Below are positions 1 to 53,102 of a stretch of 64,000 nt of DNA, piece by piece. The stretch covers positions 32,001-96,000 of the forward strand of contig CAWGYA010000006.1 of NCBI GenBank assembly GCA_963826715.1. The letters run 5' to 3'. The notes beneath the pieces are model-generated. The model was not told the DNA's origin. It saw only the letters and a list, made by a program, of their open reading frames with translations, and made no database searches. The stretch comes from Candidatus Bathyarchaeota archaeon (GTDB lineage Archaea > Thermoproteota > Bathyarchaeia > Bathyarchaeales > Bathycorpusculaceae). How positions within the stretch are numbered: position 1 is the first letter of the stretch; each line of letters opens with the position of its first letter. The position numbers and the translations under genes were made by a program.

Positions 1-222
1 AAAAATTTCGATTACGTTCTATTTGCTTTGGGGGCATTGTTGATTGTTGTTGGAGTCTACTTAAGCACGTATACCACAATGGAAATGGTCAATTCATCTG
101 TTTCATTCTACAGCAGCCCAACGCCCCAAGAGGTTCATCCATATCAGGCGGCAGGCATCTTTTGCATAATCTCAGCACTTTCTTCCGTTGCAATGGCATT
201 CTATGATATCTACCAAAAATAA
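1..222 (+). CDS. small membrane protein (probably 5'-truncated by the window edge)
   Basis: Frame is open from position 1; two hydrophobic segments. Confidence 0.55.
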   Translation, partial: KNFDYVLFALGALLIVVGVYLSTYTTMEMVNSSVSFYSSPTPQEVHPYQAAGIFCIISALSSVAMAFYDIYQK

Positions 223-246
223 GGGCGTTGTTGCAAAAGAAATTGG

Positions 247-423
247 AACCAACAACACGTTACCCTATTAAAAATTAGTGAAGAACCACCATTAGACCTT
301 TTTACTGAATCCTTACCTGTATTGAACAGGATGGGCGTGAAACATGGCTGTCCTTGGGCAGGGATAATGGGCAACCATGCTTCCGCTCACCAACCATAAC
401 AATGTTATATCAACATATTAGCT
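247..423 (-). ncRNA. candidate structured ncRNA, unassigned
   Basis: Minus strand: 11-bp stem AAGCAUGGUUG/CAGCCAUGUUU extended by GGUGAGCG/CGCCCAUC; CCUGU/ACAGG hairpin; terminal pairing; TTTAACC box at 442-448. Confidence 0.5.
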
Positions 424-1213: not shown

Positions 1214-2224
1214 CTGAAAAATACGCCTAAAATAATTGAAGTTAAAGACCTTGTTTTAGTTTACTCCGATGGAACAAAAGCAGTTAACGACATTTCATTT
1301 GATGTACAAGAAGGCGAATTCTTCGGTTTCCTCGGTCCAAACGGCGCTGGAAAAAGCACCACCATCAAAATATTAACAACCCTACTCAAAAAAACCTCAG
1401 GAACCGTAACAATTGCAGGGTATGACCTCGATAAAAATCCATCAGATATCCGCAAAATAATAGGCGTTCAAAGCCAAGAAACCACCTTAGATGGAGATCT
1501 TACAGGCAGAGAAAATATTGAGTTACAAGGGCACTTCCAGCAAATGAAAACAAGCGAAATCAAACAACGAGCAAACGAACTAATGAACCTAGTCGGACTG
1601 GAATCCGCAGCTAATAGACGCGCCAGAAACTATTCTGGAGGCATGAAAAAAAGGCTCGATTTAGCTACTGCCCTAGTTCACAAACCTAAACTACTCTTCT
1701 TGGATGAACCAACAACAGGTTTAGATCCCCAATCACGCGCAACCATTTGGACTTACTTAGACAAACTAAACAAGGAAGAGGGAATAACAATTTTTTTGAC
1801 TACCCAATACCTTGAAGAAGCAGACAAACTATGCAAACGACTTTCCATAATCGACTATGGCAAAATAGTAGCCAGCGGCTCTCCTGCCGAGCTTAAAAAC
1901 CAAATTGGAGCAGATTCCATTCGCCTTTCCCTAGAAAACTGCAAAAAAGACAATGCTAAAACAAAAGAAATCATCAAGAGTATGAACGGCGTAACTGACG
2001 TCTTAGACTCAGAGGAATGTTTAACTATTTACGCAAAGAACGCAGGCCAATTAGTCGCAGATATTGTACGAGCACTGGACAGCAGCGATATCCGACTCAA
2101 ATCAGTCACATTCTCTTCGCCGTCCCTTGATGACGTTTTCATGAAACATACTGGCAGGCGCATAAGAGCAGAAGAACACGTTAAAGCTCCAAGCGCTACA
2201 TCTGGAGGATTTGGGAGGAGATAA
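1214..2224 (+). CDS. ABC exporter ATP-binding protein (DrrA-like), probable CTG start
   Basis: Walker A GPNGAGKS lies upstream of the track's 1544 start in the same open frame; YSGGM signature and LFLDEPT Walker B; CTG at 1214 follows GGTGAGG. Confidence 0.9.
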   Translation: MKNTPKIIEVKDLVLVYSDGTKAVNDISFDVQEGEFFGFLGPNGAGKSTTIKILTTLLKKTSGTVTIAGYDLDKNPSDIRKIIGVQSQETTLDGDLTGRENIELQGHFQQMKTSEIKQRANELMNLVGLESAANRRARNYSGGMKKRLDLATALVHKPKLLFLDEPTTGLDPQSRATIWTYLDKLNKEEGITIFLTTQYLEEADKLCKRLSIIDYGKIVASGSPAELKNQIGADSIRLSLENCKKDNAKTKEIIKSMNGVTDVLDSEECLTIYAKNAGQLVADIVRALDSSDIRLKSVTFSSPSLDDVFMKHTGRRIRAEEHVKAPSATSGGFGRR

Positions 2225-3000: not shown

Positions 3001-3373
3001 AAGAAACAAGAAACGCTGATTGAATGCATGCGAAGACAATAACTCGAGTAGCCAATTGATACCCTAAGAAAAACTCTAATAATCCAGTCGGTTCCTTAAA
3101 ATGCCACCAACAAAGCTGAAAAAATCCTAAAAAACAAAACGCACATACACAAACGAAAACGCTTTTCTAAAAAACTATGAAAAATTGCGTTGTTCATAGC
3201 AAATTAACACATTTATGTCAAAAACCAAAATCGAACAACTGAACTCTTGGACAAAATTGACCACACACACCACACAAATGTCTCAAAAATTTAAATCAAA
3301 GCCCATATATGTAAGGCAATTGACCATTTTTTGCACAAAACCACCTATATTTCGCCACTGTACATTATATATT

Positions 3374-3592
3374 GTAGGCCGGGAAGTACGCTTTAAATGC
3401 GATGCACCAAGGCAAAGAGTGAATCGATCAAAACAGCGAAAAATCGATTCGCGACTAAAAATCTGCTTTGATGGGCTGAAACAGCACGTTGCAGTAAGGC
3501 TTGAGCGACAGGGTCAAAACGGTGAAAGACCCCGAAGCGGCAAAGAAAAGTCTTAATGGACCGCACAACACTAAGGCTTAGACCCGGCCTGC
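3374..3592 (+). ncRNA. novel structured ncRNA candidate, copy 1 (homolog at 36430-36659)
   Basis: 10-bp terminal stem GUAGGCCGGG/CCCGGCCUGC; two stem-loop/pseudoknot modules; covariation with copy 2; CTATATTT box at 3345-3352. Confidence 0.8.
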
Positions 3593-3612
3593 TCTTCTAA
3601 TTATTTTACCTA

Positions 3613-4146
3613 TCAACCAAATTTTTTAACGATCTCTTTAATAACATTAAAGTTCCGTGTAGTTGCCTTCAATCCCAGCGTCTTCTCCAAAAAAGGGTTA
3701 GGTAAGGCACCTTCACCTCCACCATGAGTAACACTGAACACCTCTGAGGTTTCATACGAGATTATTTCAGCTGTAGATCTTGGAATAATTCGGGGAAGCG
3801 AAAGCGGAAAAATATTTGGCATAGAGTCAGTGAAGGTTACCAGAAAACTTGAACCCTCACTCTGTTGACCTTGAAATGGGTTTAATTCAATGATAAATTT
3901 TAACCGAGATATGGTTCTAAGAAAAATAGGAACATCATAACCCAAGATTTTTTTAAGGCAGCACTCAATTTCAGCTTTAATCACCCAGCTGTTTTCTACT
4001 TGAGTTTTAAAAATTACATTCCCGCTTTGCTTATAGGTTGAAACTTCAAGGTACCCCAAACTTTGGAAAGCTTTTTTCAGTATATCTTTAGTTACGATGT
4101 GTCCGCCGACATTGATTCCACGCAAAAAAGCTATGTAACAGGTCAT
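3613..4146 (-). CDS. DUF1697 family protein
   Basis: YIAFLRGINVGG, TYKQSGNVIF and C-terminal TTRN motifs. Confidence 0.85.
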   Translation of the reverse strand: MTCYIAFLRGINVGGHIVTKDILKKAFQSLGYLEVSTYKQSGNVIFKTQVENSWVIKAEIECCLKKILGYDVPIFLRTISRLKFIIELNPFQGQQSEGSSFLVTFTDSMPNIFPLSLPRIIPRSTAEIISYETSEVFSVTHGGGEGALPNPFLEKTLGLKATTRNFNVIKEIVKKFG

Positions 4147-36429: not shown

Positions 36430-36659
36430 TTGCAGATCTGGTCTGAGCCTTATTGTCGAACGCAGCCCATCTAAACCACGTCTTAGCTGCAACAGATTCG
36501 TTCGCCGCTTGGAATCGCTGCATCATGGAGTAGATGCTTCAACAGCACATGACCAGCCCACAAAGGCAAAGACTTAGTCGCGGGCCAATCGTTCGCTGTT
36601 TAGAGTGGCTCACATCTGTGCCTTGTGCATGCGTCTAAAGCTTGCTCCCAGACCTGTAA
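36430..36659 (-). ncRNA. novel structured ncRNA candidate, copy 2 (homolog of 3374-3592)
   Basis: Terminal stem UUACAGGUCUGG/CCAGAUCUGCAA; shares GCUUUA, AUGCAC-AAGGCA, AAACAGCGAA, CGCGACUAA, UGGGCUG and UAAGGCUyAGACC with copy 1; TTTATAGC box at ~36680-36688. Confidence 0.8.
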
Positions 36660-36878
36660 CTACAATTAGAGCAGGGTCTGCTATAAATTTTGTGACATAT
36701 ATGCTATAAAAGCAAACAAAAATGTATCATTTAGTACAACAGTTTGGGTAAACTCAGAAAAAAAATTTAATACCAACCCGGTAACTATACATATAGTTAT
36801 CCAAACGGCAAAAAATTACTTGTCAACTCTAAAGGTTTAGATTCTTCACAACTCAAGCAAGCAATTGATTCCAAAAAT

Positions 36879-38491: not shown

Positions 38492-38576
38492 GCAGGGGTC
38501 GCCAAGCCAGGTCAAAGGCGTAGGCTTCAGGAGCCTATCCCGCAGGGGTTCGTGGGTTCAAATCCCACCCCCTGCA
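38492..38576 (+). tRNA. tRNA-Leu(CAG)
   Basis: GCAGGGG/CCCCTGC acceptor stem, TAGGC-TTCAGGA-GCCTA anticodon arm, long variable arm, GTTCAAATC T-loop; CCA follows. Confidence 0.97.
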
Positions 38577-53028: not shown

Positions 53029-53102
53029 GGCCGGGGCCGAGATTTGAACTCGGGCGAAAGGCTCCACAGGCCTCTATGCTGCCAAGCTACATCACCCCGG
53101 CC
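53029..53102 (-). tRNA. tRNA-His(GTG), G-1 encoded
   Basis: G-GCCGGGG/CCCCGGC-C acceptor stem, GAGGC-CTGTGGA-GCCTT anticodon arm, GTTCAAATC T-loop. Confidence 0.96.

Follow-up and report, generated by a model that had tools for sequence, protein, structure and literature searches.

A structured, modular RNA family of Bathyarchaeia and a candidate partner protein of predicted nuclease fold

Two sites in a 64,000-nucleotide (nt) stretch of a Candidatus Bathyarchaeota archaeon genome (contig CAWGYA010000006.1, positions 32,001 to 96,000; the whole stretch is referred to as the window) are, almost certainly, genes for a stable, separately transcribed and structured non-coding RNA (ncRNA) of a family apparently confined to the class Bathyarchaeia. 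Each of the two window copies consists of two homologous modules of ~80 nt, held inside two helices, P1 and P2. A reading of the sequence alone had proposed a multicopy, structurally complex archaeal ncRNA, possibly undescribed; homologues with covarying stems exist and Rfam 15 contains no match, in line with that proposal, and an internal duplication, two pseudoknots and a wider family are newly recognised here. A composite reading, in which the RNA gene would in addition specify a protein-binding ribonucleoprotein (RNP) scaffold, or a regulator, of a predicted nuclease-fold protein that we call ProtX, is put forward tentatively, at somewhat below an even chance. In soils and sediments, Bathyarchaeia rank among the most abundant of the uncultured archaea, and to our knowledge almost nothing has been learned about their ncRNAs.

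Copy 1 (3374-3592, plus strand) and the reverse complement of copy 2 (36430-36659) are identical at 155 of 208 aligned positions (74.5%, with 33 gap columns) in a global alignment scoring 58.5, as compared to -8.1 +/- 5.1 for shuffled sequences (n=300, maximum 8.5; z=13) and to -4 with copy 2 on the wrong strand. The two copies are thus diverged paralogues that align end to end, as had been claimed, and all of the conserved blocks listed by the sequence-only reading are present in order in both. Copy 1 has a minimum free energy (MFE) of -73.5 kcal/mol (z=-5.2), equalled by none of 200 shuffles; folding of copy 2 stands out less clearly (z=-2.9; equalled by 2 of 200 shuffles). With the two copies alone, 9 of 37 pairs predicted by RNAalifold are maintained through changes on both sides. 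A BLAST search of the window's own genome (2.64 Mb, 96% complete) with copy 1 missed copy 2 and returned just chance matches of 14-28 nt, while an nhmmer profile built from the two copies recovered both, along with a marginal match at C2:196000-196101 (E=0.076). This match was rejected as a third copy, given that a covariance model (CM) of the module finds just four modules in this genome, i.e. two units. A tree of 36 full-length homologues is divided into two deep clades that separate copy 1 from copy 2, and one RNA of each clade is present in four genomes, including that of the window (G000, G002, G022 and G024; here and below, G, L, f and g followed by a number label genomes, loci, families and genera, C followed by a number a contig, and G000 is the window's genome). 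The duplication that gave rise to the two paralogue types is therefore old within the genus, rather than recent.

The ends of the RNA pair to form P1, which is followed by a conserved asymmetric internal loop and by helix P2, which in turn encloses the modules. P2 can harbor one module (in an RNA of ~130 nt), two modules, as in the window copies, or three. The same bases of a one-module RNA of ~130 nt (L028) can be aligned with either half of the two-copy profile; each window copy therefore represents a tandem duplication of a single module. Modules are 64-85% identical to one another. The elements of the two window copies, with scores of the module covariance model (R1), are as follows.

3374-3592, plus strand: copy 1, two-module RNA of paralogue type 1 (MFE, homologue alignment, tree)
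3330-3352, plus strand: copy 1 promoter-like region, comprising an A-rich sequence resembling a B recognition element (BRE), TTTGCACAAAA, at 3330-3340 and a TATA-like box, CTATATTT, at 3345-3352, 22 nt before P1
3374-3383, plus strand: copy 1 P1 5' strand, pairing with 3583-3592 (helix 1; 8 of 12 pairs with compensatory change)
3384-3389, plus strand: copy 1 conserved internal loop, 5' side AAGUAC, opposite UUAGA at 3578-3582 (homologue alignments)
3390-3395, plus strand: copy 1 P2 5' strand GCUUUA, pairing with UAAGGC at 3572-3577 (covaries just in one-module relatives)
3405-3478, plus strand: copy 1 module A (76.6 bits)
3405-3414/3464-3473 and 3419-3428/3443-3452, plus strand: copy 1 module A outer and inner stems
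3415-3418, 3429-3442 and 3453-3463, plus strand: copy 1 module A 5' junction AAGA, loop and 3' junction
3434-3437 and 3475-3478, plus strand: copy 1 module A pseudoknot, CAGC with GCUG
3492-3563, plus strand: copy 1 module B (63.9 bits)
3492-3500/3550-3558 and 3505-3515/3528-3538, plus strand: copy 1 module B outer and inner stems
3501-3504, 3516-3527 and 3539-3549, plus strand: copy 1 module B 5' junction UUGA, loop and 3' junction
3520-3523 and 3560-3563, plus strand: copy 1 module B pseudoknot, CGGU with ACCG
3572-3592, plus strand: copy 1 P2 3' strand, loop UUAGA and P1 3' strand
3601-3607, plus strand: copy 1 T-rich run TTATTTT, probably a terminator, ahead of the stop codon of a convergent DUF1697 gene at 3613
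36430-36659, minus strand: copy 2, two-module RNA of paralogue type 2 (fold versus shuffles, homologue alignment, tree)
36680-36687, minus strand: copy 2 TATA-like box, TTTATAGC, with CACAAAA ahead of the box, 22 nt before P1
36648-36657 and 36636-36641, minus strand: copy 2 5' strands of P1 and P2
36554-36627, minus strand: copy 2 module A (67.1 bits)
36619-36627/36559-36568 and 36606-36613/36580-36587, minus strand: copy 2 module A outer and inner stems; pseudoknot CAGC 36595-36598 with GCUG 36554-36557
36463-36536, minus strand: copy 2 module B (61.8 bits)
36528-36536/36468-36477 and 36512-36521/36489-36499, minus strand: copy 2 module B outer and inner stems; pseudoknot CGGC 36504-36507 with GCUG 36463-36466
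36432-36452, minus strand: copy 2 P2 3' strand UAAGGC (36447-36452), loop UCAGA (36442-36446) and P1 3' strand (36432-36441)

An alignment of 73 modules in 88 columns yields a consensus with an outer stem of 10 base pairs (bp), an inner stem of 11 bp and a loop of 12-14 nt (~NAAAC-R-G-Y-N-RAARA). The stems are separated by a purine-rich internal loop (5' junction nUGA, 3' junction GACnAAGACnU), and in the tail of the module the 3' strand of the outer stem is followed by one base and then by G-R-C-Y-G, with which four bases of the loop (C-R-G-Y) pair in a pseudoknot. As the tail begins one base past the outer stem, the inner stem is forced back alongside it, and we infer that the internal loop makes a sharp turn. 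The module thereby becomes a compact knot, on which invariant strands rich in A are exposed. Across 32 one-module RNAs, no variation is seen in the 3' side of the loop between P1 and P2 or in the bases next to it (GGCUUAGA).

Covariation supports this architecture at three levels. Among the 73 modules, 87.6% of alignment cells at paired positions hold a pair, as compared to 71.2% after shuffling and 33-38% when the registers are slid, and 22 of 26 pairs show double-sided changes; the corresponding values are 96.2% versus 84.6% (37 of 48 pairs double-sided) for 32 one-module RNAs and 89.8% versus 81.0% (44 of 72 pairs double-sided) for 36 two-module RNAs of the genus, and in none of the three sets did any of 500 shuffles score as high. 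In 36 non-identical full-length sequences, compensatory change was seen at 33 of the 53 pairs that RNAalifold returned. The earlier claim that stems change in sequence yet keep pairing holds for every stem that it listed, and it survives in this larger alignment as well as in the two copies. The pseudoknot itself covaries in the module alignment (pair 33/82: AU 41, GC 30, GU 2, unpaired 0; pair 35/79: CG 50, UA 14, UG 5, other 3), and a fifth pair, 31/84, was rejected, since 48 of 72 cells are unpaired. Within the genus, the first pseudoknot, that of module A, is nearly invariant and the second covaries (166/212: GC 28, AU 5; 168/210: UA 14, CG 13, UG 5). The GCUUUA/UAAGGC pairing of P2, proposed before for both copies, is indeed made by standard pairs in all cells of the 36 genus sequences. 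It does not covary there, changing from U-A to U-G alone, at two positions, but does so in the one-module RNAs (pair 35/131: AU 16, GC 14), where P2 extends as an 11-bp helix. Partial support was found for an inter-module helix, P7, and for a short helix closing module A (helix 6, 63% paired; helix 7, 90% paired). The inter-module helices are not claimed here, as the MAFFT register differs between the paralogue types, and an 8-nt deletion in copy 1 renders the two mutually exclusive. An all-against-all scan for covarying columns was too noisy to be used.

The RNA appears to be transcribed independently, from a conserved promoter-like box and to a run of T residues. The TATA-like boxes noted before lie at the same distance from P1 in both copies, and across 107 units with enough flanking sequence, an A-rich plus TATA-like consensus begins ~27-29 nt before P1, and the most frequent position of the first TTTT (34 of these units) is 30-39 nt past the last module, which places it directly after P1. 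To be set against this, the sequencing runs that contain the stretch, five from two studies, are all of DNA. One-module loci of genus g18 (L070-L096) exhibit a conserved element, TTTGTGCAAAAG, located ~60-75 nt before the start of the module and preceding the TTTATATA box of the RNA gene; it resembles TTTGCACAAAA of copy 1 and could be an extended form of the BRE or a regulator site common to the RNA gene and a divergent ProtX gene.

The genes next to the two copies differ, as the earlier reading had held. Copy 1 is preceded by an ABC-2 transporter gene and ends convergent with the DUF1697 gene, likewise as described before; copy 2 lies between an ArsR-type helix-turn-helix gene upstream and a PF06983-family gene downstream. 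A mobile repeat, akin to a miniature inverted-repeat transposable element (MITE) or a short interspersed element (SINE), the remains of a decayed gene, or a leader or protein-coding sequence could superficially produce some of these features: P1 looks like the terminal inverted repeat of a MITE, an open reading frame (ORF) of 113 amino acids (3215-3556, plus strand) overlaps copy 1, and the number of module matches varies from 0 to 8 per genome. Yet there are only two copies in 2.64 Mb, they have drifted to 74.5% identity, no target duplication was found abutting either of them, which had been named as the finding that would point to a MITE, and the apparent inverted repeat evolves by compensatory change. 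Moreover, the paralogue types are old clades in the genus, one-module relatives are found at a conserved place on the chromosome, and in 26 units the RNA occupies a syntenic chromosomal site, flanked by both the ProtX gene and a DNA ligase gene. We therefore rejected a MITE, and the RNA reading stands. A frame is open through the RNA in just 4 of 36 homologues, the lengths of which (223-238 nt) cover all classes modulo 3; the RNA is non-coding, as judged from these sequences. Taken together, an origin of the two sites as mobile or coding sequence is scarcely credible.

The RNA is apparently a new class, without a relative among the 4227 families of Rfam 15. At gathering thresholds, a search of the whole window with these models returned two tRNAs elsewhere and nothing at either copy; at E<=10, the two copies gave just chance rows, the best at 13-19 bits, far under gathering, and at E<=1, no match was obtained with the one- and three-module relatives. 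As the models included raiA, ROOL, GOLLD, HEARO, ribozymes and riboswitches, the novelty suggested before withstands this check. No description of such an RNA in Bathyarchaeia was found in searches of the openly accessible literature. On other contigs, the genome has separate genes for RNase P RNA (G000:C2:42497-42795; 170 bits with archaeal RNase P RF00373) and signal recognition particle (SRP) RNA (G000:C8:1251245-1251560; 152 bits with archaeal SRP RF01857). Although archaeal RNase P and SRP RNAs are likewise structured, a few hundred nt in length and folded with long-range pairings, the new RNA does not have their motifs (the RNase P CR-I motif is absent from both copies, and RF01857 matches neither) and is missing from many Bathyarchaeia. 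The earlier statement on missing motifs holds for CR-I and for the C box (RUGAUGA in neither copy) and has to be amended for the D box, as CUGA occurs once, internally, in copy 1 (none in copy 2). With raiA, OLE, HEARO, ROOL and GOLLD, the RNA shares a conserved, covariation-supported complex structure to which no biochemical role is assigned; it differs from these orphan classes in that it is archaeal, smaller (~130-320 nt), built of repeated modules and unmatched by their models.

The modules recall ligand-binding RNAs. SAM-I and c-di-GMP-II aptamers also have a purine-rich internal loop at which a helix folds back, so that the terminal loop pairs at the helix base, and glycine aptamers are units repeatable in tandem. 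Each module could accordingly be a small-molecule or ion aptamer, or a ribozyme, acting in trans and arranged in tandem as in tandem riboswitches, a view that would suit the compact pseudoknotted fold, its many invariant unpaired purines, its fold-back helix and loop-tail pseudoknot and the repetition of the module. Still, the RNA is not placed in a 5' leader, as aptamers of riboswitches are: the next gene after copy 1 is convergent, among 112 unique RNA units, 29 are followed by a ligase gene in convergent orientation (median distance 49 nt), and no recurrent same-strand downstream gene was found among the 15 largest neighbour clusters of the 112 units. A riboswitch or cis-regulatory leader was rejected on these grounds. 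The RNA also has its own promoter-like box and T-run, Rfam riboswitch and ribozyme models do not match it even at E<=1 to 10, and nothing indicates a ligand. A trans-acting sensor or catalyst therefore seems to us quite unlikely.

As far as searched, the RNA family is confined to the class Bathyarchaeia. Of 36 further genomes of the genus, 21 yielded full-length homologues (66-82% identical) in BLAST searches with each copy, which also gave partial matches in two other families. Samples of genomes were searched with R1, the filters being stricter, with a possible loss of weak members, in searches over >40 genomes. The RNA was found in 84 of 101 genomes of the genus sample (mostly with 2 or 4 module matches, range 0 to 8), in 74 of 151 of the order sample and in 25 of 151 of the class sample, which includes other orders. 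Within the order it occurs in f11 (33/34; 20/20 in genus g18, with one match each), f7 (19/35, all 19 in g16), f5 (4/4), f12 (2/3), f6 (2/25) and f1 (13/35), with no R1 match in f2, f3, f4, f8, f9 or f10; among the other orders of the class sample, it occurs in f21 (4/5), f23 (3/3), f25 (2/5), f24 (1/27), f26 (1/6) and f27 (1/5). A sample of the phylum beyond the class gave a single match (E=0.0099), which we take as chance. A strict motif scan, covering one genome per bacterial or archaeal species, picked out 69 contigs, all of which contain modules by nhmmer; by title, 65 of them are from Bathyarchaeia or Bathyarchaeota, one each from an "uncultured archaeon" and a "Crenarchaeota archaeon", and two from metagenome-assembled genomes (MAGs) labelled as bacteria. 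The units on these contigs comprise 27 one-module, 39 two-module and 3 three-module forms, counts that reflect a scan pattern favouring some forms.

Several members stand out. The two contigs of bacterial label (L102, L162), whose MAGs are named Limnocylindrales bacterium and Candidatus Acidoferrum sp., carry two-module copies and are probably misbinned archaeal contigs. Three-module RNAs (L068/L181, at G013:C12:34772-35031, minus strand; also L098, L137 and L139) give three tandem R1 matches of 80-86 bits, ~90 nt apart. A 4273-base IMG/VR contig (L219) ends in a three-module unit (1-268, minus strand; 83, 74 and 72 bits, the last match cut off) and may stem from a host, with the contig misclassified as viral, or from a mobile element; the other 4 of 5 pattern matches on viral contigs were false. 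Lineage-specific expansions were seen in g16, with four dispersed one-module matches in the closed 2.2-Mb genome G052 and six module matches in G123, and in genus g1, with seven (G440) and eight (G471) module matches.

The gene neighbourhoods of the RNA point to a candidate partner. In 30 of the 112 unique units (families f11, f12 and f23), the divergent upstream gene encodes ProtX, at a median distance of 109 nt, and an ATP-dependent DNA ligase gene is the convergent neighbour in the 29 units mentioned above, with both genes present in 26. Divergent adjacency of the RNA and ProtX genes recurs in other orders, in G194, G241 and G276 (f23), G197 and G202 (f25) and G278 (f27). All 16 best-scoring ProtX loci hold the RNA, in a sample biased towards f11. 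Genome by genome, in samples compared at equal per-family denominators, the order sample contains both in 70 genomes, the RNA only in 4, ProtX only in 19 and neither in 58; in the genus sample these numbers are 81, 3, 9 and 8, and in the class sample 23, 2, 51 and 75. The three RNA-only genomes of the genus sample are 52%, 56% and 90% complete, and in genomes of that genus the RNA and ProtX lie on different contigs. ProtX matches that contain stop codons or are split were found at G466:C12:7142-7744, G004:C22:118592-119213, G436:C15:178582-179127 and G447:C9:427274-427369; these interrupted genes are possibly decaying copies, and all four genomes still have the RNA.

ProtX is a Bathyarchaeia-specific protein of ~215 residues with a mean column identity of 64% among 13 sequences from several families. 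It has 2061 database homologues, every named one of which is a "hypothetical protein" of Bathyarchaeia or Bathyarchaeota. Searches of Pfam at E<=1 with 13 members gave just one weak match, to UPF0102 (E=0.0069), and searches of NCBIfam with three members gave no family; no family of the ToxN/AbiQ/CptN type was matched in either database. A sequence-profile search of the PDB (best E=0.053, judged chance) and a Foldseek search of the PDB (nothing at E<=1e-3) gave no assignment, the top weak rows of the latter being mostly nucleases, and in the ESM Atlas ProtX falls with unnamed Bathyarchaeota clusters, the nearest named cluster being PDDEXK_14 at 0.85, a lead only. An AlphaFold model (predicted local distance difference test score [pLDDT] 89.7; predicted template modelling score [pTM] 0.86) exhibits an N-terminal helical hairpin followed by an α-β-β-β-α-β core (helix 50-65, strands 69-76, 79-87 and 90-96, helix 109-127, strand 130-135). 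The best structural matches to residues ~50-203 in VIA-align are 3dnx (Z 9.5; 103 residues, root-mean-square deviation 2.4), 2okf (9.2), 1y88 (9.1), 2ph7 (7.7) and NucS, 2vld (7.3). As modelled, ProtX has a PD-(D/E)xK (restriction-endonuclease-like) fold, complete in its core elements. E56, D82, E95 and E97 are invariant in the 13 sequences, and the third motif reads E-V-E, not E-x-K.

Based on these observations, we suggest that ProtX is the best candidate partner of the RNA, because the RNA is almost never found without ProtX and the two genes are arranged head-to-head across orders. In such an RNP, the module knots and the loop between P1 and P2 would be putative protein-binding platforms, the RNA would act as a scaffold or regulator, and the number of modules may set how many protein units are bound. 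Going further, one may envisage a new archaeal RNA-nuclease partnership, in which the modules would dock ProtX, one per module, and thereby gate, scaffold or localise a predicted nucleic-acid cleavage; this specific form is speculative, and we rate it as unlikely. Equally speculative is the notion that the RNA would serve in such a partnership as a structured allosteric cofactor, tuned in evolution through its module number (1, 2 or 3), and would be distinct from guides, classical antitoxins and riboswitches. As the DNA ligase gene is kept beside the pair, the partnership might operate in DNA replication or repair.

A number of findings speak against tying the RNA to ProtX. Related genomes are not independent, and the co-occurrence tables therefore overstate the link; part of the joint absence, moreover, falls in incomplete genomes. 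ProtX is far more widespread than the RNA (27/27 versus 1/27 genomes in f24, 6/7 versus 0/7 in f20 and 3/3 versus 0/3 in f14), and a full-sensitivity CM search with filters off revealed no module at 20 ProtX loci of RNA-negative lineages (best E=0.77), so that ProtX does not need the RNA. In the window's genus, as in g16, f5 and f21, the RNA gene and the ProtX gene lie apart, and the ProtX gene of the window's genome (C8:317483-318169) has no module nearby. Where the genes do adjoin, this could be inherited synteny, given that the same site also keeps the convergent DNA ligase gene.

Some of these points would suit an RNP RNA with a different partner, such as the archaeal kink-turn (K-turn) binding protein L7Ae, bound at GA-flanked internal loops, or another housekeeping factor, the ProtX neighbourhood then being inherited synteny. 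Indeed, the inner stem of each module is flanked on its 5' and 3' sides by a nearly invariant GA...GA in the 73 modules, formation of the pseudoknot needs a sharp bend at the internal loop, and the 3' strand of the P1/P2 loop (GGC-UYA-GA-CCC) resembles the bulged strand of a K-turn; in addition, several lineages have the RNA and ProtX genes unlinked, and ProtX is widespread without the RNA. The loop sizes nevertheless differ from those of a canonical K-turn, since one strand has 1-2 nt, not 3, ahead of the GA and the opposite strand has 8-9 nt too many, and a partner other than ProtX would leave unexplained both the presence of ProtX in 70/74, 81/84 and 23/25 RNA-positive genomes of the order, genus and class samples and the retention of the divergent pair across orders. 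We consider such a partner doubtful, though a serious contender. In G040 (family f5), a different gene is divergent from that of the RNA: it encodes a DUF2096 protein whose C-terminal domain is KH-like (L074:1827-2534, plus strand), and ProtX is encoded on another contig. This lead was dropped, as the protein is unrelated to the g18 neighbour (BLASTP E=2) and the DUF2096 gene of the window's genome lies elsewhere.

The suggested pairing with ProtX also includes a special case, in which the RNA would inhibit the ProtX nuclease in the manner of a type III toxin-antitoxin system or would be its substrate. Repeated pseudoknot units adjoining a predicted nuclease gene would fit this, as would an RNA rarely found without ProtX and a ProtX often found without the RNA; the ToxI and CptI RNAs are tandem pseudoknot-forming repeats beside a nuclease gene. 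ProtX, however, is single-copy, highly conserved and, like the RNA gene, looks vertically inherited, not patchy as a toxin; it has a restriction-endonuclease-like fold and no ToxN/AbiQ-type family match. The two genes are divergent, rather than having the RNA upstream on the same strand, the repeats lie inside common closing helices, and one-module forms are common. Furthermore, a toxic ProtX is hard to square with the many ProtX lineages that have no RNA. We give this special case little credence.

A parallel to the suggested RNP may be offered by Y RNA and bacterial YrlA with their protein Ro60 (Rsr), a likeness that does not imply homology. There, too, the ends of the RNA pair in a long stem interrupted by a conserved internal loop and the rest is variable and modular, several paralogues can occur per genome, and the RNA gene often adjoins the gene of the partner protein. 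The Bathyarchaeia RNA differs in that its modules are fold-back pseudoknots, its candidate partner has a PD-(D/E)xK fold and Rfam gives no match; the TROVE domain (PF05731) was not matched in the window's genome, while it was in the control genomes of Deinococcus and Bacteroides.

Two further observations concern the window outside the RNA genes. An ABC ATPase ORF (1544-2224, plus strand) matches just positions 80-137 of the 137 of ABC_tran, starting from residue 5; its N-terminal half, which would include Walker A, is apparently absent, unless it is encoded in a different upstream frame, possibly due to a frameshift, a pseudogene or a miscalled start. The two tRNA genes, unrelated to the RNA, are located at 38492-38576 (plus strand; 54.5 bits with the Rfam tRNA model), where the tRNA has a long variable arm, and at 53029-53101 (minus strand; 53.3 bits).

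With dozens of covarying pairs, two pseudoknots, a modular build of 1-3 repeats and conservation across several orders, the RNA class offers structural biology a compact new fold and archaeal biology a concrete candidate pair of an RNA and a protein. If the partnership with ProtX is false, the RNA would still represent a new orphan ncRNA class, worth adding to Rfam and useful as a marker for Bathyarchaeia contigs; if it is true, it would reveal a new way for structured RNAs to control nucleases.

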